Below, in pieces: positions 10,401 to 61,039 of a DNA stretch of 64,000 bases (positions are counted from its first letter, which is position 1; every line of letters starts with the position of its first letter). The stretch is from Botryllus schlosseri. Taxonomy: Eukaryota. Both the position numbers and the translations under genes were made by a program. The notes beneath the pieces are model-generated. The model was not told the DNA's origin, searched no databases, and was given only the letters and a program-made list of their open reading frames with translations. The stretch is from assembly GCA_051294905.1 (NCBI GenBank), contig CM119371.1, positions 15,812,001-15,876,000 of the forward strand, in the 5' to 3' direction.

Positions 10401-10441
10401 AATCAATTACATTACATTTGATAAAGTGTTGCAAATAACTT

Positions 10442-12704: not shown

Positions 12705-13172
12705 CATTCCACCTACAGTCTACACGTCCAATTCTTGTCGAGTAATATCAATGTATCAACTATATAAGTCAGATTTAAATCATATAAGAGGTTCTTCAAG
12801 GTGAGCACTGAGCAGTTTATAGAATAGAAGTACACTGCTATAGATAGATTACTACTAGTTTACGACAATGTATAAGCTCTAATCACTTTGTTTCGGTCAA
12901 TTTATTTGCGATATATTGACGGCGCCACTGCAAAACCAGGCGGCAGAATCATTGAATGATTGGTTAATTACACAGGTCATATCAGGGTGTCGAGAACATG
13001 TATGAAAAATGAACATGAATAGCGACTCAATCGATACCGATTACTTGAAATTGACTCAAATAATTGGCTTTGAGTCACAAGTCACTCCAGATATTAAAAA
13101 CATCGTGTCAACTCCAGTCAAGTCAAGTCATGTGAAAAAGTGACTCGATTCGCCGCAACATGGTTATACTTA

Positions 13173-14772: not shown

Positions 14773-15503
14773 TCTCAATGGAATACTAGTCTGACAAAAT
14801 TAATTAGGCTGCACATGCTGAAAAGGAAACAACAATATGCTTATCAATTCAATCAAATTGCAGGATTCATCGCAATATCATTGGAACGATTGACACGGTG
14901 GAGCATGTGATTCTAAGTTCTAAAATGATTAAAACAATAATTTATGACACGATTTCATAACGTGTAAGAAAACGGACGCCATGCCATAATGTTAGGGTTA
15001 CCATACGTCCTCTTTTTTTTTTTTAAAAGAACTGAAATTGTCATTTGAGGACGCCTTTGTGTCTTCTTTTTGTGGAATTTGTCCTCTTAATATAGAAAAC
15101 GTATCGGATGCAATCAAAAATTCGACCCCGACTCAGCGTCCGAGTTTCATACAAAATCGGGTAAATAGGAGTCGAGTCAAAGTGATGATGATGACCCTTT
15201 CACGTGGTCAACACGTTTGTATTTGAGTGAAATATACATATATAGCCTATGCGTCGTTCTAAAATGATAAACGAATCAGGTTGGTAACTGGTTGAATAAT
15301 CAAAATATGTTGTGGGAATATTAGGCCAGAAATCGTTTCGAATTGGTGTCAGCGTATATGAGGCAGGCCATCTCAGCATGTTGACATATGAGAAGTCTGG
15401 TACATCAGGAAAGATTACGCTGTGGCATACACACGCAACGATTTCGAAATTACATCATCAGTAGATCATATACAGAAAAAAACATTGCAAAAAATAATAT
15501 TTA

Positions 15504-17093: not shown

Positions 17094-17639
17094 TCTCAAT
17101 GGAATACTAGTTTGACAAAATTAATTCGGCTACATATGCTGAAAAATTGGAAGGAAACAACAATCATTATCGATTCGATCAAAATGAACGATTCATCGCA
17201 ATGTAATTGGAACGATTGACAGGACGCAGTACATGATTCTAAAGTCGAAAATGATTTAAATAATGAATTACCGTAGTGAAACGATTTCATGTCAATAATC
17301 AATAACCTGTAATAAAACGGATGCCATGCTATCTATGTTATGGTTAACATCAGAGTTGGATCGATTACATCAATTCAGTTCAATTACAATTACTGCCGTA
17401 TATGTTTCAATTACATTACAATTACCCAATGCCAAAAATATCAAATTACAATTACTGTTAAACATGTAATTAATTAATCATAAATTCAACTTCGGTAGAG
17501 AGGTTCTCTTTGACAACAGAAACACAGAAAAATTTCTAAAGCGACTGGTAACAATCAAAAGTTTAAGCGACTGGCAACGACTAAAAACGAATAGACTACA
17601 AGACAGGCAATGAAATTCAATCAAACGAATACACAAAGG

Positions 17640-18057
17640 ATTACGGGTGGTGGATATTATAGGGTTTAGGGTTAGGTATATTAGGGTTGGAGGTGTAATA
17701 GGATTAGGAGTGGGGGATACTAGGGCTGGTGGTGGGTTAGGGTATCCTAAGATCAGGGTCGCGGGTGAGGGGTATTAGGGTTGAAGGTGGGTTAGGGTTA
17801 CGGATTAGGTGTGAGGGATACGATACCCCTAACCCTAATCTAGGGATACCTAACTCCACTACTACCCTGATATCCCACACCCACAACCCTCATCTTTGGA
17901 TATCCTGACCCCAACCCTAACCCGCAACCCAAATATCTCCACACACGTAACCCGAAAATCCCACGCCCACAAAACAAATAACGCGAAAAAAAATTTCTAA
18001 CGTTCATAAATTTTGACATGTTCATGGGAAACAGTTATTAGTGTCATGGTGAACACA
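17640..18057. repeat. Degenerate TTAGGG-rich/CCCTAA-rich hairpin, a remnant related to the Merlin TIR
   Basis: G-rich attagggtt repeats switch to C-rich cctaaccctaa at ~17825. The end (tgttcatgggaaaca...tcatggtgaacac) resembles 63588-63627 of the Merlin right TIR. Confidence 0.55.
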
Positions 18058-18239
18058 GGTTGGATGTTGAACGTAAATCGAAGAAATGCCAATTATTTTA
18101 TGTTGTGCTCGTCAGGTCTCAATAACAATGTAGGCCTACTATAATTGAAATTGTAACAGGCAAATTTTTTTATCGAATTACAATTACTTGAACAGCTTCT
18201 TGGAGGTACAGAACTGCAATATACAATTGAATACCGGTA

Positions 18240-18480
18240 GTATATTCATATTTAAATGAGTCGAATATTCTCGGCTGACCCTCGTCAGGGGCAATTGTCA
18301 GCAACTAGTAGAGTACATTGAACGCTCTCGCATTCAAAATTTCATGCTGGTGACGTCATACTTTGTGATACGATTGTTGATATACAATGTTCTTTTGAAT
18401 TCTCTTCTAGTTGCTGACGATTACCCCTGACGAGTGTCAGCCGAAAATATTCGGGTTCATTTCAATATGAAAATACTATT
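18240..18480. mobile_element. Penelope-derived hairpin (inverted 3'-end copies)
   Basis: Same inverted pair as at 10170-10400 and 23970-24835. Confidence 0.72.
18423..18456 (+). ncRNA. Minimal type I hammerhead ribozyme motif (Penelope pLTR type)
   Basis: accc-CTGACGA-gtgtcagcc-GAAA-atat-TC-gggt: complete core, stem I accc/gggt, palindromic stem III AATATT. Confidence 0.7.
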
Positions 18481-18737
18481 CAATTACAAATACACAAAAT
18501 AAAAATGCTTCAATAACAATTACATGAAAAATGTAATTATTACATTCAGCTCAATTACAATTGAGAACTCTGGTCATCATACGTCCTATTTTTTTCAATG
18601 AATTGAAAGTGTCCTCGGAGGACGCCTAAAAATGTCCTCTTTTTTGGGGAATTTGTCCTCTTTTTCAAGAAAAAGTAATTAACGTCGGAGTTTCGTAAAA
18701 AAATCAGGTAAAACGGGAGTTGAGTCAAAGTGATGAC

Positions 18738-19185
18738 TAGGGCAAGTTTTTGTTGCCGTCAAACCCATGGGAAGTTGCACTCATTTTTCACATAAGTTGC
18801 AGTAAAAAGTTGCATTTGTGGACAAGCTACTCGAAATTATTAATGTACGAGATACTCGAATCGATCCGTTTCCAAGGCACTTCAACAAAATCAATAGACT
18901 GAAAAAATTGACCCAGTGAAAATATAATTTTCGGCGGTCTAGCCAAATATTTTCAGTAAAAAGTTAGTTGCATGAAAAATCGAAAAAAGTAGCAAAGAGT
19001 TGCATGAAAAAACGAAAAGTTGCAAAAAATGGCATGAAAAAAATGGACAACAGTTGCAATATAAGATTCCTCCAAAACAGATCAAAAGACCATACTACAT
19101 AATTTCTGTATATTTAGGAAACTGCCGGAGCGGTGAAAAAATTTTGCAAAAATTTGCCGTAGTAATGATCTTTTCAAATAGTTGA
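18738..19185. repeat. GTTGCA-rich interspersed repeat (MITE-like)
   Basis: Reverse-complement-similar copy at ~25655-26222; repeated aaaagttgca motifs. Boundaries approximate. Confidence 0.55.
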
Positions 19186-19527
19186 TACCCTCATATTTGT
19201 GTGAAATGTGTATATAGCCTATGCGTCATTGTCAAATGATAAACGATTAGGATTAGTAATTGGTTGAATAATCAAAATATATATGTTGTGAGGATGGCAG
19301 GGAACAAATCGGTGTGGACTTAATGGCAGTGTTAGCGTATACGAGGCAGGCCATTTCGGCATGTTGAGCTAGCCAGGCAGTTCCCGTACCAGAAGCCTGG
19401 TACATCGAGAAAGATTACGCTCTGGCATACACACGCAACCATTTCGAAATCACATCACAAGTAGATAAAATACAGAAAAAAACTTGTGTTGAATAATACT
19501 TATCATTTCAAAAATGACATGCTAGAT

Positions 19528-20462
19528 CAGAGGTGGCCAACCTTTTCAGCGAAATGACCATGAGCAATTGACGAGACATTGAGGAGGCCACTAGCCGCTC
19601 CAAGCGTGAGAATTTTTCAAAGTTTATAGGTCAATAATATTGTTACTTGAGTATATTGCGGGTTGTAACCAAGTCACAGTGCTCCGAGTCACAAGTCAAA
19701 TTCACTTTTATTGCTTTAACTCGAGTCAAGTCGAGTCATTTTCAATTCACCACCGAGTCCAAGTCAGCGAGCAGAGGGTCGAGTCCGAGTCATGATATTA
19801 TGACTCGGGTCCGAGTCCAAGTCATTGTGTTGACTGCTCAGTTTCCAGTTAAAGTCTTGTGAAACTCAATGTTTATAACTCTACTTGGTGATATTGAATG
19901 GTTCGCAATTATATTATAATGATTTTCCTCACTTTTAGCAGTTTCTACTCGCATTTTCAAGTACCAGTACCAATAGACAAAATCACAATAGTGTGGTCAC
20001 TTAACTATTTTTCGAAATTACAACGAAATGTTGGTCTTACACAAATTGACTCGAGTTGAGTTGGGGTATTTCCGTATTTTGATAAAATGACTCGAGTCAA
20101 GTCGAGTCATCAGAAAATCGTGACTCGAGTCGGACTCGACTCATCACAACACTGACGAGGCGTGAAGAAAATTTTTTATTGGGATAAATTTACCGCAACT
20201 TTATTGAAATGTACGAAGACCTACCAAAATGTGACTGCCCAGTGCCCATTGATCTGGCAATGCGTCAGAACTGATATTTTAGTCATCAACATCCCGAGAG
20301 TTGCAGGGAGACTAATCAAACTTTTGGATGGCCTTGCAAGTCACAATCTGTGGGTAATTCAATTTTATATACGGTAACTAATTTCGTAAGTTACCTCGCA
20401 GGCCACTCATAACCATCTGACGAGCCACATGTGGCCCGCTGGCCACAGGTTGACCGCCCCTG
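19528..20462. mobile_element. hAT-type non-autonomous element
   Basis: TIR cagaggtggccaacc...ggttgaccgcccctg; TSD tgctagat/tggttgat; the paralogue at ~15520 shows the empty site. Related to 33261-34093. Confidence 0.85.
19658..20154. mobile_element. GACTCGAGTC-family MITE nested in 19528-20462
   Basis: gggttgtaaccaagtcac...catcacaacactg; reverse-orientation copy of 6927-7504. Confidence 0.8.
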
Positions 20463-22395
20463 TGGTTGATAAACTCATATCCACATCCTGCGGAGCAGGT
20501 TTTCTATCTCTTTCGGATACTGTCAGCTTTTCCAATTCTACAGTTTTAACCTCGGTCCCCAATTCTCCTCCGTATAAATACAATTTGTCTGCGATATGAA
20601 CTTTGCATCCGTCAATGTATTCGATGGCGAGACTGCGAATAGATTGCCATGTCTTTGTTATATGATTGTAAAATACTACAGCTGATTGATGATTGAAGGC
20701 ATACAAGGTCCCATTGAACCCAAATACACATCCTTGATCTTGACCAACATTTATTGGTATGTTTGAGATCTGGCTACACTGCATGGTTCTCAAGTTGATC
20801 TCGAAAGCTTCTTTTCGAAAGTCAAATGAGTCTTCACCACCAATGACATAAATAAACTCCTGTGTACTCGTGACCGCAAAGTTACGCCAATTACCGTCAG
20901 TTACGAATTTGATATGAATTGATGACGATTTTCCAGTGTCAATTTCATACACCACTACACGGTTTCCGGTAACCATCAACATGTAGTTCCCACATCCAAT
21001 ACATCTGTTATATCCTCCACCGGAATAGCTCTCATACAACTTTTTCCATTCGGTTCCATTGAAACTAAAGATTGCGCAACCAGTTGTGACATAAATTATT
21101 CCTCTATGCTCAGCTATATCAAGGAGCGCCGTTGCAACACATGGAGGAAGTTGAGTTACCACTGACCATTCTTCTTCAGGCAGGCTGTACCTGTACACTA
21201 ATCCAGTATCCCCATTACAAGATATAATTCCTGTTGACTTTTCAATGGGAACAGATAGCAATTCGGAAGGTTTTTCATCTAAAACTGTGTCACATATTTT
21301 GAACACCAACTCCGCTAATTCAGACACCAACTGTTCGCGAATAACGTGATCCTTGATAAATTGCCGAGGGAGAAATGATACGTCAATTGTGTCAAATAAA
21401 TCAACAAATGCATCTTTTCTTTTGTCCATCTCCTCTTTAACCTAGGTAACGATGGCATTCCATTTCATCATTTCATATTTCTTCCCCCAGTTATGCACAA
21501 GGGATAATAGGTACAAGAAATTATCTTTTGGTAAGGCCTGCAGCTTCTGTGACTCGATATATGCCATGAGATTGTCTCGGAAAAAGATTTGAATCGAGGT
21601 TTTCAAAAGTTCTTTGTGATAACCTCGAGCCACCAATAGCATCTCTTCTACGTTGTCCATGGTTACATTTTCGGAAAGAAATTCAACGTAGAGATCCGTC
21701 AAATTATGAAGGCAAAACATGTTCGATGCTTCCATGAAATCAGTGATGCAGTCCAAAGAAAAATCAGCTTTCCCAGAATAAATGAAGTTGACGCATTGTT
21801 TCACAATCCCACCAGAAGTATCAGGCAATGAAACAATCCCAGTCTTCGACTCTTCCGTATCATTCGAAAACATGGTTCGGAAATATTCCGATGCGGCTAC
21901 CAAGACAAATTTATGAACCTTGATTTCATCTTGGTCAGTCACTATGGTTATGTCACAAAACTCTTCTTGGTTTTTCAATGCGTTCATGGAATCGAGCATA
22001 GATCGTGGATGCAAGGCACATTCCTTAGGAGTCATTCTCAATGTAATACTAGTTTGACAAAATTAATTAGGCTACATATGCTGAAAAATTGTAAGGAAAC
22101 GACAATATCATTATCAATTCAATCAAATTGAACGATTCATCGCAATACAACTGGAACGAAGAATAGACTTATCAGCATAAAAAACTAAGTAGGTTAGGCT
22201 ACAGGCTGCAAAATTGTAACGAAACATATTACAATGACAATCAGTAGGCATACTATTCCAAAAACGTTGCTTGCTTTTTCAAACAAAATATAAGCCCTCC
22301 ATTTAGAGGTCAGGTTGTCGATTTTACATATAAACTCAAGACTGTGGGGAACAGTGAAAAATCCTTACAACTCACAAACAGAAAATCGATACAAC

Positions 22396-26222: not shown

Positions 26223-26516
26223 ATTATGACATATCGAGTACAGTAAGGGGTAACCATATTCATTTAGAATGCATTGACTAGGTTGAAATCAAATCTCACA
26301 ATCAGACCTCATCTTGAGAATAGTGTACGGTATCTGAAAGTTACTAATAACTGGGCATTAGGGTATCTCCAAATATACTTTTCCAAAGTTTAAGGGCTAG
26401 TTGTGGTTAAATTGTTAGGTTGGCTAAGAAAATTCTGCACATTGATTTAGTTCCATTCCAGCCTGTAAAAGCGAAGCTATCAAAGTTACAATACCAGTGT
26501 TTAAGAAAGGCTCCGA

Positions 26517-27995
26517 CTCAGCATGGATTCAGATCAAACCACAACACCAACCATGCAATACTATCAATTGTAACGGACTATTACAAAACCATCAAGCAAA
26601 AAAAAGTGGCTGCAGCATTTTTATCGACCTCCGCAAAGCTTTCGACACAGTTAACCACAGAATCTTAAGATACAAGCTAGAACACTATGGAATCAGGGGT
26701 ATTGCAGCAACTCTACTTGAAAGCTACCTGGCAAATAGCAAACAATTTGTTAAACTGGGGACATTAAGATCAACTACCAGAGATATAACTTGTGGAGTCC
26801 CACAAGGCTCAGTCCTTGGACCGACTTTTTTCCTCATTTATATTAACGACATTGTTAATGCATCTTTATTCCGCACAACCCTATTTGCTGATGATACTCA
26901 CCTCTTCATAACCTCCAACACTGTCAATGATTTGCATGCATCCGTGAATAGGGAACTCCCAAAAGTGTCGAGATGGCTGCAAGCAAACAAACTAAGCTTG
27001 AATGCAGATAAGACCGAGATGCTCCTTTTAAATAATGCCAATCATAGTTTCACTGTGAACATCAATCATAAACAAATCTCCACATGTGACTCAGCAAAAT
27101 ATCTCGGTGTCACTATTGATGCTAAAATGTCTTGGAAGCAGCATATTGAACGCACAATATCAAAACTAGCTCGGTGTGTTGGAATAATGACCCGTCTGCA
27201 ATCTTTGGTTTCCAGATCAATACTACGAACCATATATTTTTCTCTTTTCCACTCTCACCTGCAATATGGAATCGTAGTATGGGGAAGTGCATGCAAAACA
27301 TTTCTGTGCAGAATTCGAACCCTGCAAAACCGTGTGATACGGCTGATCTCATCTGTACCTTTACGTACCAATTTATCGCCTTACTACCGTAAGCATCGAA
27401 TTTTGCGAGTTGATGAACTATATCGCTTCGAAGTATCAAAAGTTGTTCACAAATATTTTTGCAATAGTCTGCCTCCTGTGTTTGATGACTTTTTCATACC
27501 TGCTAAAAATGTCCATTCCCATTACACGAGATCCTCGTCAAAGGGAAATATCTACTTACCCCCACCCAATAGCAACCTAACTAAGAGATCTATCGACTAC
27601 TCGGGACCTATCATTTGGAATGCATTACCAACACATATCCGTGAATTGCCTTATGATAGATTCAAAAAAACCCTACTTGATCACCTCTTATTGTTACACT
27701 AACACTGTTGCCCTACCTCGCCCAGACATTGCTTCATTGATCATTTGCTACCATCGTTTAATTTTTCTTTTATCTTATTTTTTTAACTACTGTAACTTTT
27801 TTTACAGCCAGACTGTTTAGAGTCAAGTGTACCTGTTTGATGCTGGTGTGATCAGACTAGATGACCCTCACGGTCTTATCGATCATTCCTATCTAATACC
27901 GAATACTGTGCATGCATATTTTCTGTACCACCACCACTGCCGTGTGTTATGTATTTTGGTTTGATGAAAAATAAAGACTCTCTCTCTCTCTCTCT
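26517..27995 (+). mobile_element. 5'-truncated non-LTR retrotransposon (CR1/L2/Crack-like), RT domain plus 3' UTR
   Basis: QHGFRSNHNT, FIDLRKAFDTVNH, CGVPQGSVLGP, LFADDT and KYLGVTID motifs; frameshift in the A-run at ~26600; stop at 27702; ends aataaaga(ct)n. Clade assignment is tentative. Confidence 0.92.
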
Positions 27996-45406: not shown

Positions 45407-46390
45407 ATATATGGCGGGCGTGGGCTGATATGGGAAAATGAAGTACTTTGCGGAACGCTTTCCTCAATCATAATACTATTCGCCTATTTCTCCACCTATA
45501 CAAGGAACAAACCGTGTTTAATGTGAACTTCAAGTTGAAAACGTAGAGACCAAAAACAGTATTCAGTGAAATAATTAACGTAATGCACATGAATAGCTAT
45601 TGAAGTCAAGATATATAAGCTGTTGAACTCTGACTGTGTGTCGGACGTAGAAAACGTAGTTTATATGGGCATCATATGGTCTTTAACTCGCTCTACCCTG
45701 TCCGTGCATTAGTCGAGCGTCTTCATAATTAATAATCCGTATTGCCGTAACCACTTTTCAGCGTTTCTGGATCATTGGCTGTGGACCTGTGGTACCCAAC
45801 ACAGTGACGTTGAAAATATACAAAATGTAGGCTACATAGGACATTGTTGGATGATATGTAACAAATATCACATAAATGTTTGACGATCGCGCTAATGCGA
45901 TCGCAACCAGAATTTATTCCCTTAGCGACCTATATGTTTGAGTTGTGACAGAGAAGACATTCAACTATGGGTAGCGGTGATAAGAGTAATCAACGTTGCT
46001 ACTCAAGTAGTACAAGTAGCGACTTCAAACTTGGTAGAAAGTCAGTATTATAGGCCTGTTTTGAATCGAAAACTGTTCAAGTAGAAGTAGAAGTATGCAG
46101 AAAATGCAACCAGTAGGCTATAGTGTGTGTCGATAAAATGTACTCGAACTTGAAGTGGAAGAATTTCCTTCGTCCTTTGACCCTCTATTACTACGGGTTA
46201 GAGCTGTCATTGAAAGGACACCGACGAGAGTTCATCGATGTGTTTTTCAGTCACTAAAGTCTTCACTGCCGCGTTGCCCCCTAGTTGACTCTGTATTCGG
46301 CTTCATCCAGCGATCGAAAACAAAACACGTCACAATGTTCACCGTACGTATTTAAATACCATGCCGCCCTGACCGAGTAACATTGAGTTG

Positions 46391-46853
46391 ATGATGGCGG
46401 GGGCGAATGTATATCCGAGTCTTTCTAAAGTAAATTGGAGGGAGCTGACTTTGGCGACAATCGACAAGGCAAGCGCAATTGCTTGGTGCCGACAGCACGG
46501 ACTGCTTGCGAAACAAATGCGATGCCCCGAATGCAATGGCGATATGGCGGAATACGAGCGGAGCACAAAAATCGGATTCCGTTGGCAATGTCGAGACCGC
46601 GACTGCAAAACGACATTGCAAATTGTGAAAAATAGTTTTTTCGATTTCAACTTCAAACCACCATCGAATTGCTGTATTTATACTCGTATGAAATGGCGTC
46701 GTACAAAAATGTTAGACGGGAGTGCGGGATCGCTAGCGATGAGACCATCTGTAACTATCGCAACTACGTCCGAGACATATATGCCGAGTATTTCGTGGAC
46801 AATCCACTTCAATTGGGCGGCCCTGGAAGAGTCGTTGAAATCGACGAGTCGGC
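46391..46853 (+). pseudogene. Merlin/IS1595 transposase, N-terminal half
   Basis: Zn-ribbon (HGLL...RCPEC...WQCRDRDC...KNSFF), frameshift at ~46645, then ...LQLGGPGRVVEIDES containing the first catalytic Asp; cut by the insertion at 46854. Confidence 0.9.
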
Positions 46854-46889
46854 AGTAGTTAGTATGATCGCTCGTGAGGTGCGTGGGGT

Positions 46890-47170
46890 TCTTATGGCGG
46901 GGTCGCATGCTAACGCGAAAACCGGGGGTGGCATGCTAACGTTTTCGTCTTATGGCGGGGTGGCATGCTAACGTTTTCGTCTTATGGCGGGGGTGGCATG
47001 CTAACGTTTTCGTCTTATGGCGGGGGTGGCATGCTAACGTTTTCGTCTTATGGCGGGGGTGACATGCTAACGTTTTCGTCTTATGGATGCGGTCGCATGA
47101 TAACGCGAAACTCGTGGTGGCATGCTAATGTTTTTTGGTATACGTGCGGCGACATGCTAACGACGATAAA
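46890..47170 (+). repeat. 33-bp subterminal tandem repeat
   Basis: (tcttatggcgggggtggcatgctaacgttttcg)n, decaying inward to ~47750; mirrored at ~60270-60552. Confidence 0.9.
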
Positions 47171-50100
47171 TGTGTCTGTCATGTATTCTTACGGGATCTG
47201 TGGCGACTCGCCATGTGTTCTTGCGGTCGTGATTCGTACTTTCAGGCATCTCTCGCGCGGTGTTGAATATGTATCAAGTAAATAGTCATGTGAATGAATC
47301 TTTGTTAATGTGTATATCGTTATTCTTATGGATGCGGCGATGATTCGTACTTTCAGGCATCTCTCGCGCGGTGTTGAATATGTACGAGTCACCAACAATA
47401 ACCGCACAAACGGAAACGTGGCTTGTTGTGAGGATTAAGCAAATGACCTGCGCGCTGAATTGTTTCACAGCCAACCGCGGTGGTCGTGACTCGCCTTTTT
47501 TACTATAGGTGGTGACGGTGATTTGCCTGTCGTGTATTCTTACGGGGTCTGTGGTGACTCGCCATGTGTTCTTATGGATGCGGTCGCATGCGGCTATTGC
47601 GTCTTATGGCGGGGGTGGTGAGCGGGTATTGATGCTAACACGAAACCCGGGGTGGCGAGCGGCACTTATTTCTTATGGCGGCGGGTCTTATTTCTTATGG
47701 GTGCGGTCGTGATTCGTACTTTCGGTATAGACTGCGGGCGGCATGTCGTACTTTCAGCAAAAAAGGTGTGAAATAGTTTGCCAAGTCTAGGAATCACTTG
47801 CAAGGTAATATTTTGGTATTTAGTTTACCACAGAGCCGGCGTAGACGGTGATTCGAATTTCAACAATAACAACGGTCACAAATTAACACTTCAAATAGCT
47901 GTGAAATAGTTTGCAAAACCCCGCGATCACTGACAAGATAATATCTCGGTCATAACCATCTTTCACGACTTGGTGTCATAACCATACCGATCGCTCACGC
48001 GGTGAAATTTTAGTAATCAGTTTGTCACAGAACTTGATATCGCTGGTAAGATTTAACAAGTAACGAATAACAGACCGCGGTAACTTGAATAGCGACAAAT
48101 TGTCACTTATTTCCGCTCTAACTCTAATCCTTTGTGAAGTGAACGCTTATTCAAAAGGGTGTGATATAATTTTAAAATCCAACGACCACTCACCGGATAA
48201 TACTTCAGACATAGCAATTCCGCATACCCGCCTACAAGGTAATATTTCGGTAATTAGTTTGTCACAGAACCGTCGCAGGCGGTGGTTGGAAAACCGACAA
48301 TTTGTCACTCGCCCGCGATCGCTATATGTTTCACGCCTCCAGAATAGTGGCTGACTTTAGTTGCGTGATAAGATCCATGAAAATATTCAATCAATGTGTT
48401 AGTTTATCAACTTGAAATGAAACTCACTACACAAATCAAGTCGATTCGTATCTGAATGTTTTAAATCGGTACAACTCTAATCCTTTGACAAATCCCTTAC
48501 CGCGTTTTTGTTGAATCGAACGTAACCCGACTATTACTGACGCCGACTTTCAGCCGCATCGAATTATTCGCACATTCCGCGCCACTGTTTTCACACTTAT
48601 AGAATCAATACCAACTATAACTCTACAAGAATCAAGAATCACAAGTATGTGCATTACACAGTTATTGTCTTTATTAACTTGAAATCAAACACTTAACAAA
48701 AACACACAACTAATCATTTGGCAACTCTAGCATTACCAAAAAATTCCAGTATTGTTGATTGAAAATCCTTGAGTCATTATTATCAAAAATGTTATAGTAC
48801 CGCATCGGAATCCATTCGCGGGATGTACTAAAGTTAAATCCAGATAATCCAAAATGAAATATTTGGACTTTGACATTGCGTGAATTGAAATAGGCTTGAC
48901 AAACATGACTACCAACTTTCACCCAGTCACATTTCAAGATCATACTTTGAAACAATCCTTGAAACTTACAACTCTATTCACGACTGAGTTTTCCGTTTAT
49001 CAAATAGAGTTTCAGTAAATACTATCGCGATATTTTAATGTGTTACTACACACAATAGAATCAATCAATGAAATGGCACCTGTTGTAAATATTTCTAACT
49101 TGACAACCACTTGTGCGTACCGCGATCGACTTGCGACGCGATGAGTTAAATCGGAATATTTCTATCTATTTGTCGAAACCTTGAACAAACTATCAGGTTA
49201 TTTTTTGTTATAATCGAGTGAACGGAAATAGTATTACGTCTCAACATTTTAGCATCTTCCCATAAACAAAAGAGTAAAATACAAAAAACCTTGTCAAGTC
49301 AATCCGTTTGTAACTTACCCAACCAAAGCAAAAAGTATCCTTATGAAAAGTAGACAAGACTACGCCAGTAATCACTACAATCCAAAATCCATAACAAGTT
49401 CGGTTGTATTCATATCCCTACGACGCGTCTTTTGTTTTTCAACTGTAAAAGTCGTTACTATTTTGCAAGACAAAGTAATTACTACTTGATATATTTTATA
49501 AACCAAAGTAAATACTACTCGGTGTGTGGTTTGAGATTAACGTATTACATTTGAGTATACCGGATTTGAATACCTGACCAACGTAGTTGAGAATTCATTT
49601 CTTACAATCAAACGCCGGTTTTACATTGAAAGGTATCATACTGTAAACATAAGGATTGACACATTAATTTGATATATGAGATTTTGTATTGCTCGACCAC
49701 GAATTGATTATTAAATTATTCACGATAATTAGACCCGATGTTGTGGTAAAGGTTATTAGAAAATATCACTTTTGGCATCGAGTACCAGTCGAAGTTGGTG
49801 AACAATAACACCGAAAATGATAAATGCGTTTCGTGCTACTATTGATACAAGTTCATTTCTATCAGGTGAAATAAACGCCATCACAAAACTCAGAGCATGC
49901 AAAGGTCTTGATTGATATGAATTTCGATTTGTGTCTTATGATTTTAGAAATATTATGATTCGTTAAACCAAAGTCGTATGTCCGATTATTAATTGATTGG
50001 AAACTTGATCACGTACCTCGATCATTACAGAAGATTATAACCCCATTGTCCGACAATCTTTTACAAAAGGATCGAAACCAAGTAACCCAAAGTCGTTGCC

Positions 50101-51844
50101 GTCGCATAAACAATTTGTACGACGTTTGATAATTGTACCCTATACGTTGGTGTACTAGAGATATTTGTAAAACACACTCTGGTAAAGAAATCGAAAAGAT
50201 ATCCTATACCTAAATCTGATAAAACCATTTTGCACTTTTTGTTCGTCAGTAGTATCCATTTTAATTTTCCCATTTCCTCTCGTCAAAGTAGATGTAATCA
50301 TAGTCACTAAAGAACTTACTTGGATGTGTTTGAATTCTAGACATAGTTATGATTTACTCAACGCAAGACCCAAGAACAACCGTAGTTAACAACCGTGCAC
50401 ACATATCCAAAATATCGCACACTCCGCTATTCCTAAAGTACAAACACCCGATACAAAATATCACTTGTTGCGGCATCATCTTCACAATATCGCCATTTTA
50501 TTTGTGTCAATTAGTTACTTTGTATGTTATCCCACAACTCTTACAAAAGTACGAAGGATATTAACATCGCACTAAGTAATTAACTTTACTCGATATTCTC
50601 ACATTACGAAACTAAAGAATGGTTGGTTAGACTCTACAAACAGTTTCGATATCACAAGACCTTTATTGTCTGAATGGGTGTTCATGTATCTTAATAATCA
50701 AATAGTTTAACACAGAACTAGTACTAACAGAAACATCAGAGTTGTTTACACAAAAGTTTGTATGTGTACAGTATGCGAATACCATGTGTAAGTCCAGCAC
50801 AATTGCAGTATCCATTCGAGTTTAGTCAACACAAATTTATTACAACGGAGCCACGTAAACTTTCGTGAAAGAAAAGCATACTCACTTCCAGAGGGTTATG
50901 TCAACACCATAGCAGTTCCCCAACAACAAAGTACATATGTTTCTAGCCACGGTCCTTACATCTTTCACATAGATCAATCTACTTTGCTAACGAAAAGTGC
51001 TGAGTCATCACATGATCGCTCTCACAACAAAACAGCTAGTAGATATTATCATTCAAAATATTCCTAACCCTTTACACACCAGTGACAAATCATACAACGA
51101 ATATGCTTTGCGGGTCGAATTGTTGTTCAGTGTCAAGTCTAACTGTTGAAACATACAATAAACAGCGCAATCCAATTAAAACCACGAATCTATTTTCATT
51201 TCGTCACATACAGAAAAATAAATTTTCTTTCTCCAACACATACTTGTAACCAATCGCTTTCATTAAACACACAACACCATAAAAGTATTTACTTTCTACA
51301 ACATAGACATTCCGATGCAGTCAAGAAATATTTTTATTAATCAAAATCATCGATTTCTGTTCACGGCGTTAGTGTGTGCATGTCATACCTGTGGGCCCCG
51401 TATTAAAATGGACACGACACGACTGACTGTAAGGAGATAGAAGTCTATCTCATCGATTTACATGTGGTCTTCGCTACGGTTTCAAAAAACGAATCATCTC
51501 TTTTGCATTGATCTAGACCGAGCAAGTTAGTTAATGGCCATGATTGTGTTTGTCATATGCGAATGATAGGGTTACTGTCAAATCTACATACAACAATCTT
51601 CTGACGATCATAATAGCAATTTCATTTTCCGCCCCTTCATAATTGTACAACTCGGTAACTACGTTTAACAAGACCAATCACACTACCGGCGTTGAACACA
51701 AGATACCTACCCAAGTAAAAATATCATTCTGGTTTGGACAACTGACGTTTACCTGTGTAAAATTATCATTTTCACTTGGAGGTCCACCGTTACCTAACTA
51801 AAATACCATTGTCCTTTGGAGATTTATCGTTTACCCAGTGTAAC

Positions 51845-52380
51845 AATCCCCTTTTCACTTGGAAATCTATTTTTGGTCTGAATAACAAACCCCTTTTCAC
51901 TTGGAAATCTATTTTTGCCCTGGATAACAAACCTTTTTCATTTGGAAATATATTTTTTCTCTTGGTAACAAACCTTTTTCACTTGGAAATCTATTTTTTC
52001 TCTTGGTAATAAACCTTTTTCACTTGGAAATATATTTTTTCTCTGAGTAACAAACCTTTTTCACTTGGAAATATATTTTTTCTCTTGGTAATAAACCTTT
52101 TTCACTTGGAAATATATTTTTTCTCTGAGTAACAAACCTTTTTCACTTGGAAATATATTTTTTCTCTGGGTAACAAACCTTTTTCACTTGAAAATATATT
52201 TTTTCCCCGGGTAACAAACCTTTTTCCCTGAACAACAAACCTTTTTAACTTGCAAATATATTTTTTCCTGGGTAACAAACCTTTTTCACTTGGAAATATA
52301 TTTTTTCCCTGGGTAACAAACCTTTTTCGCTTGGAAATATGTTTTTCCCTGGGTTACAAACCTTTTTCACTTGGCGATCT
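51845..52380 (+). repeat. 41-bp AT-rich minisatellite, left arm
   Basis: (ttttcacttggaaatatattttttctctgagtaacaaacct)n with alternating variants. Confidence 0.9.
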
Positions 52381-54979
52381 GTCATTTACCTGAGTAAAAA
52401 TATCATTTTCCTTTGGGGATCTGGCGTTTACCCAGTGTAACAATACATTTTCTCTTGGTCATCTAGCTTTTCCTAGAGTAACAAAACCATTTTCATTTTG
52501 AAATCTGACAACCACACCGACAATTTGATATTTTTGTATTTTCTTACAGCGAACAGCGACAAAATATACACCAACAACGACTCCGATACATTTGTCTAAT
52601 CAAATATTCACTTGTGTTGGTGCATCCCATCAAAATCGTCGGTTACCCACATGCAATGCGCTCTTGTACACAGAAAGGCATGTTTTGGAAAATTGGACAA
52701 TAGGCTTCGATAGTTCTGTGATGTCCGGGTTCGTGCTTTGGATTTTCCAGAGTCAAAATGTCTGAATAAAACACCTCCTTGACGATGGTTGGTATGTGGA
52801 TAACGGTGTTCGGAAAACGGTTGGATTTATGTCACCCATCGCGATAACAATTCCAGGTCGAGTTTTCCCCCGCGCGTTTACTATATTGTGTCTTTATTGG
52901 TCAATGTATGTCTCGACATTCAGTTTGAAATCGGAAACCCTGATAAGTATGTAACCGGATCCGGATATCAACTCTGAATCGATAAACCAATGAACAATAT
53001 TCAAAGTAAACATGTTACACCCTGCGTTCCCACGAAAAAATACCATCCAGACATACGTCGCGCTTGTTTGCCCACACCAGTATACGCGCAAATGGAGGTG
53101 TGTGACATTGCATGCAATGCGTTGGTATACAAACATCGATCCACAGACATTATCATAGTCGGTAGTTTTGATGTAGATCGAATGTCATCCGATAACAATA
53201 CCAATAAGCCACATTGCAATGACTCTGAGTCAATCTGAAGCATGACATACAGACACACAAACACGGAACCGTAACATGGGTTATTCACATGGCGGTGAAA
53301 GTGAACTGTACAGTACATACCAATATTGTGATCACAGTCAAATATGCGAACCGTGTACAATCATATACCCAGGTTTTTGTTGGATATGTACAAATCCGAT
53401 AAATCGATACATTTCTGTTCCTTCTACGTCAATAATACAAGCACCATTCAAATGCATCACTCGAATGTGAGGTTCGTCGGGTGTAAAATCCATGTCAAAT
53501 AACACCAAAGTGTGCCTTCCGTGTTTTATCATTTCCACCGACGCTTCTTGTCTGTGTCGTAACACTATGGTGCGGGGAGTTGAAAAACGGCGGATTGTGA
53601 AACGGATTGACATGATCAACAGAATCGACGTCACTAGCCTTGTGACGATGTCTTTTCAAAATGATACCGATCTCTTGTGGCGATGACCGTTTCGAAATGT
53701 CACCGGACGAACTGAATCCTTACGATGATGTGTTTTATGATTGCGTGTGAAATCGCGAGGTAGTGTTCTATTGTGGTGTACGATTGCAGTCTTCACAGAA
53801 ACACACCTTATTGGATCACAGTATCAGTCCGAGATTTGCATAATCACTGTTCACGATATTTGTCTGGAGTCGTTATGTGGGAGTAGCGACATCCATGCAT
53901 CGTGACTGAAAGACTGATCGCAATCATTTCGAGCACCACTTCGATAGTATCACCATGGTCAAACGCTGCAGCAGAAAACTTCGGTGTGCTCAACACATTG
54001 ATAGATGTATCCAATTGGTCTGGGTGGTCTGTCCGGAGATAGGGCCATGACTATCTTGTAATGTTACAACACGATAACACCATCGAGTAAATCAGTGAAC
54101 GGTGTCGAAATATCGATGTAATAGCGCGGACTCAGAGTCATTGCAATGTGGCTTATTGGTATTGTTATCGGATGACATTCGATCTACATCAAAACTACCG
54201 ACTATGATAATGTCTGTGGATCGATGTTTGTATACCAACGCATTGCATGCAATGTCACACACCTCCATTTGCGCGTATACTGGTGTGGGCAAACAAGCGC
54301 GACGTATGTCTGGATGGTATTTTTTCGTGGGAACGCAGGGTGTAACATGTTTACTTTGAATATTGTTCATTGGTTTATCGATTCAGAGTTGATATCCGGA
54401 TCCGGTTACATACTTATCAGGGTTTCCGATTTCAAACTGAATGTCGAGACATACATTGACCAATAAAGACACAATATAGTAAACGCGCGGGGGAAAACTC
54501 GACCTGGAATTGTTATCGCGATGGGTGACATAAATCCAACCGTTTTCCGAACACCGTTATCCACATACCAACCATCGTCAAGGAGGTGTTTTATTCAGAC
54601 ATTTTGACTCTGGAAAATCCAAAGCACGAACCCGGACATCACAGAACTATCGAAGCCTATTGTCCAATTTTCCAAAACATGCCTTTCTGTGTACAAGAGC
54701 GCATTGCATGTGGGTAACCGACGATTTTGATGGGATGCACCAACACAAGTGAATATTTGATTAGACAAATGTATCGGAGTCGTTGTTGGTGTATATTTTG
54801 TCGCTGTTCGCTGTAAGAAAATACAAAAATATCAAATTGTCGGTGTGGTTGTCAGATTTCAAAATGAAAATGGTTTTGTTACTCTAGGAAAAGCTAGATG
54901 ACCAAGAGAAAATGTATTGTTACACTGGGTAAACGCCAGATCCCCAAAGGAAAATGATATTTTTACTCAGGTAAATGAC

Positions 54980-55597
54980 AGATCGCCAAGTGAAAAAGGT
55001 TTGTAACCCAGGGAAAAACATATTTCCAAGCGAAAAAGGTTTGTTACCCAGGGAAAAAATATATTTCCAAGTGAAAAAGGTTTGTTACCCAGGAAAAAAT
55101 ATATTTGCAAGTTAAAAAGGTTTGTTGTTCAGGGAAAAAGGTTTGTTACCCGGGGAAAAAATATATTTTCAAGTGAAAAAGGTTTGTTACCCAGAGAAAA
55201 AATATATTTCCAAGTGAAAAAGGTTTGTTACTCAGAGAAAAAATATATTTCCAAGTGAAAAAGGTTTATTACCAAGAGAAAAAATATATTTCCAAGTGAA
55301 AAAGGTTTGTTACTCAGAGAAAAAATATATTTCCAAGTGAAAAAGGTTTATTACCAAGAGAAAAAATATATTTCCAAGTGAAAAAGGTTTGTTACTCAGA
55401 GAAAAAATATATTTCCAAGTGAAAAAGGTTTATTACCAAGAGAAAAAATAGATTTCCAAGTGAAAAAGGTTTGTTACCAAGAGAAAAAATATATTTCCAA
55501 ATGAAAAAGGTTTGTTATCCAGGGCAAAAATAGATTTCCAAGTGAAAAGGGGTTTGTTATTCAGACCAAAAATAGATTTCCAAGTGAAAAGGGGATT
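54980..55597 (-). repeat. 41-bp minisatellite, right arm (two extra units)
   Basis: Mirror-coordinate sum shifts from 107360 to 107442 across the array, a difference of 82 bp. Confidence 0.9.
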
Positions 55598-58500
55598 GTT
55601 ACACAGGGTAAACGATAAATCTCCAAAGGACAATGGTATTTTAGTTAGGTAACGGTGGACCTCCAAGTGAAAATGATAATTTTACACAGGTAAACGTCAG
55701 TTGTCCAAACCAGAATGATATTTTTACTTGGGTAGGTATCTTGTGTTCAACGCCGGTAGTGTGATTGGTCTTGTTAAACGTAGTTACCGAGTTGTACAAT
55801 TATGAAGGGGCGGAAAATGAAATTGCTATTATGATCGTCAGAAGATTGTTGTATGTAGATTTGACAGTAACCCTATCATTCGCATATGACAAACACAATC
55901 ATGGCCATTAACTAACTTGCTCGGTCTAGATCAATGCAAAAGAGATGATTCGTTTTTTGAAACCGTAGCGAAGACCACATGTAAATCGATGAGATAGACT
56001 TCTATCTCCTTACAGTCAGTCGTGTCGTGTCCATTTTAATACGGGGCCCACAGGTATGACATGCACACACTAACGCCGTGAACAGAAATCGATGATTTTG
56101 ATTAATAAAAATATTTCTTGACTGCATCGGAATGTCTATGTTGTAGAAAGTAAATACTTTTATGGTGTTGTGTGTTTAATGAAAGCGATTGGTTACAAGT
56201 ATGTGTTGGAGAAAGAAAATTTATTTTTCTGTATGTGACGAAATGAAAATAGATTCGTGGTTTTAATTGGATTGCGCTGTTTATTGTATGTTTCAACAGT
56301 TAGACTTGACACTGAACAACAATTCGACCCGCAAAGCATATTCGTTGTATGATTTGTCACTGGTGTGTAAAGGGTTAGGAATATTTTGAATGATAATATC
56401 TACTAGCTGTTTTGTTGTGAGAGCGATCATGTGATGACTCAGCACTTTTCGTTAGCAAAGTAGATTGATCTATGTGAAAGATGTAAGGACCGTGGCTAGA
56501 AACATATGTACTTTGTTGTTGGGGAACTGCTATGGTGTTGACATAACCCTCTGGAAGTGAGTATGCTTTTCTTTCACGAAAGTTTACGTGGCTCCGTTGT
56601 AATAAATTTGTGTTGACTAAACTCGAATGGATACTGCAATTGTGCTGGACTTACACATGGTATTCGCATACTGTACACATACAAACTTTTGTGTAAACAA
56701 CTCTGATGTTTCTGTTAGTACTAGTTCTGTGTTAAACTATTTGATTATTAAGATACATGAACACCCATTCAGACAATAAAGGTCTTGTGATATCGAAACT
56801 GTTTGTAGAGTCTAACCAACCATTCTTTAGTTTCGTAATGTGAGAATATCGAGTAAAGTTAATTACTTAGTGCGATGTTAATATCCTTCGTACTTTTGTA
56901 AGAGTTGTGGGATAACATACAAAGTAACTAATTGACACAAATAAAATGGCGATATTGTGAAGATGATGCCGCAACAAGTGATATTTTGTATCGGGTGTTT
57001 GTACTTTAGGAATAGCGGAGTGTGCGATATTTTGGATATGTGTGCACGGTTGTTAACTACGGTTGTTCTTGGGTCTTGCGTTGAGTAAATCATAACTATG
57101 TCTAGAATTCAAACACATCCAAGTAAGTTCTTTAGTGACTATGATTACATCTACTTTGACGAGAGGAAATGGGAAAATTAAAATGGATACTACTGACGAA
57201 CAAAAAGTGCAAAATGGTTTTATCAGATTTAGGTATAGGATATCTTTTCGATTTCTTTACCAGAGTGTGTTTTACAAATATCTCTAGTACACCAACGTAT
57301 AGGGTACAATTATCAAACGTCGTACAAATTGTTTATGCGACGGCAACGACTTTGGGTTACTTGGTTTCGATCCTTTTGTAAAAGATTGTCGGACAATGGG
57401 GTTATAATCTTCTGTAATGATCGAGGTACGTGATCAAGTTTCCAATCAATTAATAATCGGACATACGACTTTGGTTTAACGAATCATAATATTTCTAAAA
57501 TCATAAGACACAAATCGAAATTCATATCAATCAAGACCTTTGCATGCTCTGAGTTTTGTGATGGCGTTTATTTCACCTGATAGAAATGAACTTGTATCAA
57601 TAGTAGCACGAAACGCATTTATCATTTTCGGTGTTATTGTTCACCAACTTCGACTGGTACTCGATGCCAAAAGTGATATTTTCTAATAACCTTTACCACA
57701 ACATCGGGTCTAATTATCGTGAATAATTTAATAATCAATTCGTGGTCGAGCAATACAAAATCTCATATATCAAATTAATGTGTCAATCCTTATGTTTACA
57801 GTATGATACCTTTCAATGTAAAACCGGCGTTTGATTGTAAGAAATGAATTCTCAACTACGTTGGTCAGGCATTCAAATCCGGTATACTCAAATGTAATAC
57901 GTTAATCTCAAACCACACACCGAGTAGTATTTACTTTGGTTTATAAAATATATCAAGTAGTAATTACTTTGTCTTGCAAAATAGTAACGACTTTTACAGT
58001 TGAAAAACAAAAGACGCGTCGTAGGGATATGAATACAACCGAACTTGTTATGGATTTTGGATTGTAGTGATTACTGGCGTAGTCTTGTCTACTTTTCATA
58101 AGGATACTTTTTGCTTTGGTTGGGTAAGTTACAAACGGATTGACTTGACAAGGTTTTTTGTATTTTACTCTTTTGTTTATGGGAAGATGCTAAAATGTTG
58201 AGACGTAATACTATTTCCGTTCACTCGATTATAACAAAAAATAACCTGATAGTTTGTTCAAGGTTTCGACAAATAGATAGAAATATTCCGATTTAACTCA
58301 TCGCGTCGCAAGTCGATCGCGGTACGCACAAGTGGTTGTCAAGTTAGAAATATTTACAACAGGTGCCATTTCATTGATTGATTCTATTGTGTGTAGTAAC
58401 ACATTAAAATATCGCGATAGTATTTACTGAAACTCTATTTGATAAACGGAAAACTCAGTCGTGAATAGAGTTGTAAGTTTCAAGGATTGTTTCAAAGTAT

Positions 58501-60594
58501 GATCTTGAAATGTGACTGGGTGAAAGTTGGTAGTCATGTTTGTCAAGCCTATTTCAATTCACGCAATGTCAAAGTCCAAATATTTCATTTTGGATTATCT
58601 GGATTTAACTTTAGTACATCCCGCGAATGGATTCCGATGCGGTACTATAACATTTTTGATAATAATGACTCAAGGATTTTCAATCAACAATACTGGAATT
58701 TTTTGGTAATGCTAGAGTTGCCAAATGATTAGTTGTGTGTTTTTGTTAAGTGTTTGATTTCAAGTTAATAAAGACAATAACTGTGTAATGCACATACTTG
58801 TGATTCTTGATTCTTGTAGAGTTATAGTTGGTATTGATTCTATAAGTGTGAAAACAGTGGCGCGGAATGTGCGAATAATTCGATGCGGCTGAAAGTCGGC
58901 GTCAGTAATAGTCGGGTTACGTTCGATTCAACAAAAACGCGGTAAGGGATTTGTCAAAGGATTAGAGTTGTACCGATTTAAAACATTCAGATACGAATCG
59001 ACTTGATTTGTGTAGTGAGTTTCATTTCAAGTTGATAAACTAACACATTGATTGAATATTTTCATGGATCTTATCACGCAACTAAAGTCAGCCACTATTC
59101 TGGAGGCGTGAAACATATAGCGATCGCGGGCGAGTGACAAATTGTCGGTTTTCCAACCACCGCCTGCGACGGTTCTGTGACAAACTAATTACCGAAATAT
59201 TACCTTGTAGGCGGGTATGCGGAATTGCTATGTCTGAAGTATTATCCGGTGAGTGGTCGTTGGATTTTAAAATTATATCACACCCTTTTGAATAAGCGTT
59301 CACTTCACAAAGGATTAGAGTTAGAGCGGAAATAAGTGACAATTTGTCGCTATTCAAGTTACCGCGGTCTGTTATTCGTTACTTGTTAAATCTTACCAGC
59401 GATATCAAGTTCTGTGACAAACTGATTACTAAAATTTCACCGCGTGAGCGATCGGTATGGTTATGACACCAAGTCGTGAAAGATGGTTATGACCGAGATA
59501 TTATCTTGTCAGTGATCGCGGGGTTTTGCAAACTATTTCACAGCTATTTGAAGTGTTAATTTGTGACCGTTGTTATTGTTGAAATTCGAATCACCGTCTA
59601 CGCCGGCTCTGTGGTAAACTAAATACCAAAATATTACCTTGCAAGTGATTCCTAGACTTGGCAAACTATTTCACACCTTTTTTGCTGAAAGTACGACATG
59701 CCGCCCGCAGTCTATACCGAAAGTACGAATCACGACCGCACCCATAAGAAATAAGACCCGCCGCCATAAGAAATAAGTGCCGCTCGCCACCCCGGGTTTC
59801 GTGTTAGCATCAATACCCGCTCACCACCCCCGCCATAAGACGCAATAGCCGCATGCGACCGCATCCATAAGAACACATGGCGAGTCACCACAGACCCCGT
59901 AAGAATACACGACAGGCAAATCACCGTCACCACCTATAGTAAAAAAGGCGAGTCACGACCACCGCGGTTGGCTGTGAAACAATTCAGCGCGCAGGTCATT
60001 TGCTTAATCCTCACAACAAGCCACGTTTCCGTTTGTGCGGTTATTGTTGGTGACTCGTACATATTCAACACCGCGCGAGAGATGCCTGAAAGTACGAATC
60101 ATCGCCGCATCCATAAGAATAACGATATACACATTAACAAAGATTCATTCACATGACTATTTACTTGATACATATTCAACACCGCGCGAGAGATGCCTGA
60201 AAGTACGAATCACGACCGCAAGAACACATGGCGAGTCGCCACAGATCCCGTAAGAATACATGACAGACACATTTATCGTCGTTAGCATGTCGCCGCACGT
60301 ATACCAAAAAACATTAGCATGCCACCACGAGTTTCGCGTTATCATGCGACCGCATCCATAAGACGAAAACGTTAGCATGTCACCCCCGCCATAAGACGAA
60401 AACGTTAGCATGCCACCCCCGCCATAAGACGAAAACGTTAGCATGCCACCCCCGCCATAAGACGAAAACGTTAGCATGCCACCCCGCCATAAGACGAAAA
60501 CGTTAGCATGCCACCCCCGGTTTTCGCGTTAGCATGCGACCCCGCCATAAGAACCCCACGCACCTCACGAGCGATCATACTAACTACTGTCGGC

Positions 60595-61039
60595 CTTTGT
60601 CCGCAGAAAACATAATGTTGGAAGAACGGTCAAGACGCAGTGGGTGTTCGGGGGCATCGACGTTGAATCGAAAGAGGGATTCCTGGTGGAAGTCGAGAGA
60701 CGAGATGCTGGTACTCTTTTGCCCATCATACAACATTATATCCTGCCCGGAACGACTGTGATATCAGATCTCTGGGCAGCGTACAATACGGTGAGCAATT
60801 TGGGCTACCAGCATCTCACAGTAAACCACAGATTAAACTTTGTGGACCCGATCTCCCACGCAACGACACATCACGTTGAATCAATGTGGGCCCGAGCGAA
60901 ACAGAGAAATAAGCGGGAGTGCGGGACTCATCGTACTCTCCTGGATACGTACTTATTTGAATTCATGTGGCGCCTCAAATTCGGCGACGATCCATTTCAG
61001 AATTTGATAAATCAGATTCGCACTCGCTATCCTGTTTGA
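60595..61039 (+). pseudogene. Merlin/IS1595 transposase, C-terminal half
   Basis: FVRRKHNVGR..QWVFGG...RDAGTLLPIIQHYILPGTTVISDLWAAY...HLTVNH..FVDP....HVESMW...YLFEFMWR; joins in frame to EIDES-A when the insert and one TSD are removed. Confidence 0.93.

Follow-up and report, generated by a model that had tools for sequence, protein, structure and literature searches.

Replication of Polintons, also called Mavericks, is assumed to begin at protein-primed ends, as it does in adenoviruses and phage phi29. Here, we describe an element with Polinton ends and an unusual body in the genome of Botryllus schlosseri, within a stretch of 64,000 nucleotides (GenBank assembly GCA_051294905.1, contig CM119371.1, positions 15,812,001 to 15,876,000 of the forward strand) that we call the window and in whose numbering positions are given unless another locus is named. 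The element is an insertion of 13,735 bp (46854-60588) made up of two inverted arms and the spacer that separates them. It is one member of a large and diversified family of non-autonomous Polinton/Maverick palindromes that is present in several hundred copies.

Polintons are typically 13-25 kb long, with terminal inverted repeats (TIRs) of 100-1,500 bp and target-site duplications of 5-8 bp (bioRxiv 10.1101/2023.08.22.554363). The window element has 5'-AG…CT-3' termini, TIRs, and a 6-bp duplication, and it shares its terminal ~0.6 kb with autonomous Polintons; it differs from them in having no recognised protein-primed polymerase (pPolB), integrase, capsid, ATPase, or protease, and its 6.4-kb arms are about four times as long as the longest TIR in the range just given. 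Non-autonomous Polintons exist by name, such as Polinton-1N1_DR of zebrafish (PMC9341505), and Tlr1 elements are “sometimes viewed as non-autonomous polintons” (PMC5499653). The repeat-library entries resemble our element in having Polinton ends without genes and in depending on a helper, a comparison that is made by name and description. A full-text literature search found no description of Polinton derivatives that are palindromic or present in hundreds of copies; repeat-library entries lay outside that search, and an unpublished library record is possible.

Two further comparisons concern the duplication of one end. Butterfly Polintons have gene-bearing TIRs of about 2 kb in which one end has been duplicated, so that the hexon and adenain genes occur twice (bioRxiv 10.1101/2025.02.07.637071). 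Similarly, one subfamily of the present family (L023/L024), a sister to that of the window element, carries a left-end open reading frame (ORF) of its presumed helper twice. The butterfly elements are autonomous and the repeat is a minor part of each, whereas here the repeat is almost the whole element and is mostly non-coding.

The DNA of incomplete adenovirus particles has long inverted duplications, and palindromic phi29 genomes are reported to have evolved in vitro. Snap-back defective genomes are described as almost fully self-complementary and as strong competitors for the replicase (PMC13506859), and snap-back genomes of adeno-associated virus have been reported (PMC8235507). The likeness to our element would lie in one end duplicated in inverted orientation, both origins kept, the genes lost, and dependence on a helper. 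Copy-back genomes are transient, in infected cells or the test tube, whereas the elements described here are integrated and inherited, fall into subfamilies, and have a conserved core.

The Foldback (FB) transposons of Drosophila, and long-TIR elements related to them, likewise have very long inverted arms that flank little or no middle, and they often lack coding sequence. FB arms are largely short tandem repeats, and these elements are not known to be connected with Polinton ends or 6-bp duplications. In the window element, by contrast, tandem arrays (about 0.18 kb and 0.65 kb) take up less than 1 kb of each 6.4-kb arm, the remainder of which is unique sequence.

Structure and insertion site of the window copy

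The two arms make up 93% of the element (Table 1). An inverted-repeat search reported them in two registers, one pairing 46850-52229 with 55213-60592 (5,380 nt, shown as 100%) and one pairing 51888-53231 with 54129-55472 (1,344 nt, 99%, with 897 nt in between); there are two registers because the right arm holds two extra units of a 41-bp tandem array. Exact counting over the 5,376 positions of the first register gave 9 mismatches, of which seven fall inside the array and two outside it (49572 and 51837). In the second register, all 11 mismatches fell inside the array (51890-51991), with none over 51992-53231. Overall, then, the arms differ by two substitutions and two 41-bp units, and the 1.2 kb adjoining the spacer is free of substitutions. 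Chance was rejected as the origin of the inverted repeat, which extends for 5.4 kb with only 9 mismatches.

The insertion begins with AGTAGTTAGTATG… and ends with …CATACTAACTACT, that is, AGTAGT…ACTACT, and the hexamer GTCGGC stands directly outside both ends. The GC content is 49.8% in the first ~0.93 kb of the arm, 36.2% in the rest of the arm, and 43.0% in the spacer. An initial annotation, made by a model from the sequence alone, had already described arms of about 6.4 kb, an 897-bp spacer, these ends, and a 6-bp duplication; the exact count and the empty sites described below agree with it in all of these respects.

Table 1. Features of the palindromic element and its flanks, in window coordinates
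Feature	Position	Strand	Remarks
Left flank, holding the 5' portion of a transposase gene (IS1595-like, ISXO2-type) that the insertion cuts	46373..46853	+	ORF runs up to the insertion point
Target-site duplication GTCGGC, left copy	46848..46853		Present once at paralogous empty sites
Left arm	46854..53231	+	6,378 bp; inverted-repeat search and exact count
Terminal module, homologous to autonomous Polinton TIR, starts AGTAGT	46854..47478	+	Matches both TIRs of the C9 element at 90% (611 aligned columns)
33-bp tandem repeat, 5.6 copies, within the terminal module	46923..47105	+	Mirror copy at 60337-60519
Trace of 165 bp that aligns, collinearly and at ~71% identity, with the autonomous element's right subterminal region (last ORF, 3' end)	48633..48797	+	E 6e-12
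Inner core, present partly or fully in copies of all sampled subfamilies	50493..53231	+	Sequence comparison between copies
40- to 42-bp tandem arrays	51840..52494	+	Right-arm counterpart at 55134-55606 with two more units
Non-palindromic spacer, 897 bp	53232..54128		Homologous in 11 of 14 copies, partly kept in two more
Right arm, mirror image of the left, ends ACTACT	54129..60588	-	6,460 bp
Target-site duplication GTCGGC, right copy	60589..60594		Direct reading
Right flank: remainder of the IS1595-like transposase gene	60590..61033	+	DDE_Tnp_IS1595 (Pfam PF12762) from profile position 26, 1.1e-15

The element sits in the transposase gene of another mobile element, and paralogues of that element preserve the site as it was before the insertion. 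Among 20 non-self matches to the left flank, 14 are accompanied by a right-flank match that overlaps by exactly 6 bp, and one paralogue that was read across the uninterrupted site has GTCGGC once. GTCGGC is a genuine target-site duplication, and the insertion was precise. Paralogues of the left flank are 98% identical to it besides one 10-bp indel.

The same flanks bear on the age of the copy. They differ from the nearest paralogue by 3 mismatches over ~1,190 bp (~0.25%), and because the host transposon has diverged so little, the window copy must be young. Its arms differ from each other at 1 of 3,801 bp, and the nearest other copy of the family is ~1.2% away (6,640 against 6,855 bits). A young insertion that is nonetheless this far from any other copy acquired most of its divergence before it inserted, in a lineage with identical arms.

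Three side observations belong with the host site. The IS1595/ISXO2-like family is itself young, with about 20 other copies, several of which (e.g., L054 and L055) are 98-100% identical to the one in the window. A deletion of 10 bp on the left side is private to the copy in the window. In addition, a 319-base contig from public data under a second species label (run X7) matches 46571-46853 exactly up to the insertion point and then diverges; it comes, in that species, from either a paralogue or an empty site.

The initial annotation recognised no Polinton genes in the element, and profile and translated searches uphold this. None of the 20 ORFs of at least 70 aa in one arm plus the spacer passed a Pfam cut-off; 13 ORFs of an autonomous Polinton from the same genome, compared with the window copy by tblastn, gave zero matches, the 165-bp trace included; and an Rfam scan of the window copy gave no matches. 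With neither a pPolB nor an integrase of its own recognised by the Pfam and tblastn searches, the window copy is not an autonomous Polinton. Most of the family copies that were read likewise have no recognisable protein-coding gene.

A 105-aa ORF in the spacer, open in 9 of 11 copies, was considered as a gene and rejected for lack of a coding signal: across the three codon positions its variable sites number 25/20/29, and those of a control stretch nearby 20/24/25. Among the 12.9 million records of one RNA run of raw reads, 102 reads fell on the element, on both strands; 100 of the 102 fit only partly, DNA carry-over is possible, and we conclude nothing from them.

A palindromic family and its autonomous relatives

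The number of relatives was estimated by counting motifs across the whole 495-Mb genome (219 contigs), where reversed control patterns gave no hits. A 26-mer from the spacer occurs 377 times and a 24-mer from the arm core 1,295 times, and among the first 100 arm-core matches listed, 82 lie in convergent pairs 3.4-14.2 kb apart. These counts point to roughly 500 palindromic elements in the genome.

The terminal 947 bp of the window element matches many sites as inverted pairs 12-15 kb apart. Ten such end-pairs were retrieved and nine proved to be palindromes, with arm-to-arm matches of 5.5-6.8 kb at 99.04-100% and homology to both the arm and the spacer of the window copy. Four more copies were reached through the spacer. 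Two of them are ordinary palindromes (99.62% and 99.80%), a third has a 2.09-kb transposon nested in one arm, and the fourth is an asymmetric hybrid. All 12 symmetric copies with both flanks available are bounded by perfect 6-bp duplications, every one different. The initial annotation had proposed looking for palindromic copies with duplications of their own, and these are such copies. The 12 measure 12,798-14,500 bp, or 82-93% of the length of the helper described below (15,663 bp). AGTAGT, with which the window copy starts, is present at all 13 other left ends that were compared, including that of the autonomous element.

A few individual loci merit a record of their own. Six arm-core matches lie within 34 kb at C1:16772429-16806248 in the order + + - + - -, which suggests two palindromes nested in, or packed beside, a third. 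A one-armed relative of the copy L027/L028 (C1:14706108-14711882) matches the left arm at 98-99% and the spacer over its first 367 bp; it is known from coordinates only, and no second arm was found among the scored matches. The nested transposon mentioned above (L046 1410-3503) is a non-coding element of 2,094 bp with short CACA(A)n TIRs and an apparent CTCA duplication, and it is present in one arm only. The arm sequence beside it is still 99.93-100% identical to the other arm; the nesting is a post-insertion event and yields no age.

The family also extends beyond this assembly. Public runs under two organism labels hold the spacer and the inner arms, and contigs from both cover the whole arm, although these contigs are short and none spans an arm. 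Read depth under both labels is far higher on the element than on its flank, which is not a measure of copy number. The family appears to be abundant under a second species label too, that of a related species.

The tenth end-pair is an autonomous Polinton, here called the C9 element, of 15,663 bp with 750-bp TIRs and the duplication CATGCG. It encodes a protein-primed polymerase of 1,205 aa (PF03175, 3.5e-8), an integrase with rve (PF00665, 2.9e-16) and Chromo (PF00385, 4.3e-8) domains, and a P-loop ATPase with weak similarity to Pox_A32. A search of the genome with the pPolB sequence gave 427 first-look candidates and at least 38 loci; all 38 that were scored are full length at 92-100% identity, and 32 are free of stop codons.

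The terminus of the window copy (element positions 33-625) is up to 90% identical to both TIRs of the C9 element, so that the Polinton ends named in the initial annotation can be traced to an element with its own pPolB and rve-Chromo integrase. The annotation had taken the first ~0.9 kb as the ancestral TIR. The homology to the TIR stops at ~0.6 kb, whereas the GC-rich zone does reach ~0.93 kb. Its view that the element depends on a helper fits the shared ends, the resident helpers, and the missing genes; integration in trans is itself a step we infer.

Comparison of the copies revealed that the arms are modular: an outer ~0.6 kb of Polinton TIR is followed by 1-3 kb that vary between subfamilies and then by an inner ~2.7 kb that, with the spacer, is held in common. 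Among 14 spacers, 11 are homologous (~0.9 kb), two retain only about 100-290 bp, and one is of an unrelated type that recurs elsewhere. This second type, of ~780 bp, marks a sublineage (C12:6541820-6544978, C14:4274417-4277749, and the centre of L027/L028), and in some copies its first ~415 bp are present in both orientations, so that the centre is itself partly palindromic.

Termini and cores tell different stories. Across the family, the terminal ~0.6 kb is 75-98% identical to co-resident autonomous TIRs. The window copy and L029 have cores that are 99% identical and termini that are 75% identical over 218 bp; for L039 and L041, the figures are 99% and 85% over 53 bp. L021 has a terminus that agrees with the autonomous element at 98% over 529 bp, and a second terminal class is 86% identical over 595 bp to the TIR of another autonomous lineage. 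Terminal and core similarity disagree so strongly that the palindromes must have repeatedly swapped ends with their helpers or with one another.

In L023/L024, the shared sequence reaches beyond the TIR. Both arms match the left end of the helper over 1,627 aligned columns at 93.9%, a match made up of the TIR and a further 0.87 kb that the helper carries at its left end only. Each arm holds an intact ORF of 212 codons (L023 1525-2160, minus strand; L024 5500-6135, plus strand) with 97% amino-acid identity to the helper's left-end ORF. Since left-end-only sequence stands on both arms, at least one arm duplication must have taken place. Window-type arms have instead the trace of the helper's right subterminal region that is listed in Table 1.

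The initial annotation had held that an arm is one Polinton end copied back on itself, and had suggested a search for Polintons that share the TIR at both ends and the next stretch at one end only. Only the 0.87 kb in L023/L024 is of this kind, and one-ended sequence does appear to be mirrored there onto both arms as proposed; in the window copy, the interior of the arms offers only the 165-bp, ~71% trace of a right end and is not recognisable as one end of a Polinton.

The left-end ORF itself, the first gene at that end of an autonomous Polinton (L025 1511-2164, minus strand), has 217 aa and no Pfam match. Its nearest Atlas clusters are OB-fold families (REPA_OB_2 and tRNA_anti-codon, scores 0.92-0.95), and it may encode a single-strand DNA-binding protein.

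Within each copy, the two arms are closest to each other. A tree of a 1.1-kb core segment places them so in 14 of 14 copies, nine pairs being identical and five being sisters with support of 91-100, and arm-to-arm differences outside the arrays number 0-13 positions per copy. Four copies were also compared over 3.8 kb of arm, where a self match scores 6,855 bits and a match with 44 mismatches and 3 gaps scores 6,633. The second arm and the nearest other copy scored 6,851 and 6,640 bits, respectively, for the window copy, 6,855 and 6,735 for L031, 6,847 and 6,425 for L027, and 6,840 and 6,240 for L047. The arms of copies thus differ by 0-0.4%, and the nearest other copy is 0.7-4% away.

One copy departs from this symmetry. 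L043/L044 (C2:18906925-18922925) is a hybrid. Over its outer 3.4 kb the left arm belongs to the L023 type and includes the helper's left-end ORF; the right arm belongs to the window type. A transition of 170 bp leads to the inner 2.8 kb, in which the two arms are nearly identical. Beyond the right terminus stand 41 inverted bp from the left flank of the same copy, then a second terminus of 17 bp, and last the duplication GTCGTG.

How the palindromes may have arisen

We put a probability of about 60% on the reading that fold-back (copy-back) synthesis built these non-autonomous Polinton derivatives and restored their symmetry, and that they were integrated in trans. Co-resident autonomous Polintons would both replicate and integrate the palindromes, the protein-primed polymerase of the helper initiating at the common terminus and its integrase making the 6-bp duplications. 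On an extrachromosomal molecule, a nascent or displaced strand that comprises one arm, the centre, and the start of the second arm would pair with itself; its extension as far as the terminus, with its own first arm as template, would give a hairpin with a normal duplex end. The hairpin would then be copied into a full palindrome, and helper integrase would insert the product. Both ends would in this way be identical to the last base before integration, and recombinants that owed a new outer module to template switching with a helper, in common sequence, would be re-symmetrised likewise. Such fold-back is familiar from incomplete adenovirus particles and from in-vitro-evolved phi29 genomes. 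The proposed step also matches the description of snap-back defective genomes (PMC13506859).

Three lines of evidence favour a step before integration. Symmetric copies of several terminal classes stop exactly at the terminus with their duplications intact, a boundary that chromosomal copying from one arm to the other has no cause to respect; the only copy that runs off its end is the hybrid L043/L044. Helper sequence found at the left end only is present on both arms of L023/L024, which requires an arm duplication. Finally, the window copy is young, yet most of its ~1.2% divergence is older than its insertion.

Several points weigh against fold-back synthesis. No extrachromosomal, hairpin, or protein-linked form and no replication intermediate was observed, and we know of no experiment that has demonstrated replication of Polintons by their own pPolB. 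The conserved inner core and the spacer have no match in the C9 element, the one autonomous element that was read fully, and the bulk of the window arm likewise appears to match no part of it. About 18 of the first 100 arm-motif matches listed are unpaired. The copies were sampled through their similarity to the window element, and their narrow length range may be an effect of that sampling. The hybrid L043/L044 demonstrates that asymmetric elements can exist, and its run-off proves that arm-templated copying in the chromosome occurs. Inverted repeats of 6 kb that lie 0.9 kb apart are expected to undergo chromosomal gene conversion, and conversion alone could explain why arms differ by 0-0.4% when the nearest other copy is 0.7-4% away.

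The run-off and the expected gene conversion are the core of the main alternative, which we regard as possible and on the whole unlikely. It keeps the same family and the same helpers, and has the palindrome arise once or a few times, its arms then homogenised by chromosomal gene conversion and its modules exchanged by ectopic recombination, with no recurrent fold-back. Conversion between arms is well known in large palindromes, those of the human Y chromosome among them. The four scored copies look as they should after a long stay in the chromosome with conversion, for in each of them the second arm (6,840-6,855 bits) is closer than the nearest other copy (6,240-6,735 bits). The 41 bp of inverted left flank at the right end of L043/L044 is a footprint of arm-templated chromosomal repair. 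The same hybrid also argues the other way, in that its heterologous outer arms remain unhomogenised. Conversion alone would also leave at least one arm duplication to be explained in L023/L024, and it sits poorly with a window copy whose host is only ~0.25% diverged and which is still ~1.2% from any other copy. All 12 symmetric copies checked stop precisely at the end of the terminus and keep their duplications, an outcome that outward copying in the chromosome would not produce.

A bolder form of the fold-back reading, which we offer tentatively and consider unlikely, would make the palindromes satellite or defective-interfering genomes of an active polintovirus: extrachromosomal, self-priming hairpins that helper capsids would package and whose integration would draw on a circulating pool instead of on chromosomal donors. 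Packaging would explain the 12.8-14.5 kb range of the 12 symmetric copies, and this size argument is suggestive. A circulating pool would explain why the donor of each tested copy is missing from the assembly (nearest copy at 0.7-4%, own arms at no more than 0.2%), as well as the continual swapping of termini to those of current helper lineages and the abundance of the family under a second species label.

It seems improbable that the palindromes are kept for a host or anti-helper role, in which hairpin RNA from the arm pair would give rise to small RNAs against anything with Polinton ends. A transcript of the arm pair would indeed fold into a perfect 6-kb hairpin, and the sparse reads of the RNA run do fall on both strands. 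Those reads are few, nearly all are partial fits, and they may derive from DNA; the high copy number, the insertion into other transposons, and the rapid turnover of modules look parasitic.

The initial annotation saw in the window copy a copy-back-like defective genome, and a single accidental product of this kind that integrated once would fit the anatomy of this copy taken alone. The census refutes such a single event, with hundreds of copies of the same architecture at other sites and with other duplications, and we judge it very improbable. Least credible of all is an assembly fold-back artefact or a local inverted duplication after an ordinary insertion: palindromic chimeras can arise in long-read assembly, but the same architecture recurs at many loci and contigs with a conserved non-palindromic spacer, unique flanks on both sides, perfect duplications, and matching empty sites, and a post-insertion duplication would give no direct 6-bp duplication around the whole palindrome.

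Neighbouring features and significance

The rest of the window holds two features that we record for completeness. On the minus strand, 7934-22062 is occupied by BTB-BACK-Kelch-like ORFs without introns, at least four of them in tandem (546, 338, 538, and 206+344 aa); some of the ORFs are split by stops or frameshifts, and the Atlas clusters of one are kelch-like proteins, commonest in Mollusca or Chordata. At 26446-27702 on the plus strand, an ORF of 418 aa resembles, by eye, the reverse transcriptase of a non-LTR retrotransposon.

As for the palindromes, their number has consequences for the genome that carries them. Several hundred near-perfect palindromes of 13 kb would come to about 1% of the genome if all are full length. 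Such palindromes usually destabilise chromosomes, and the family is a notable load; it is also a hazard for assembly and read mapping.

For the Polintons themselves, the narrow length range offers a testable handle on whether their capsids package DNA in animals. Palindromic half-genome duplications are a classic by-product of protein-primed replication, and the family would therefore be fossil evidence of that mechanism. If the fold-back reading is true, Polintons have parasites of their own, which track helper lineages by swapping termini, and the arms race between them can be read from one genome.

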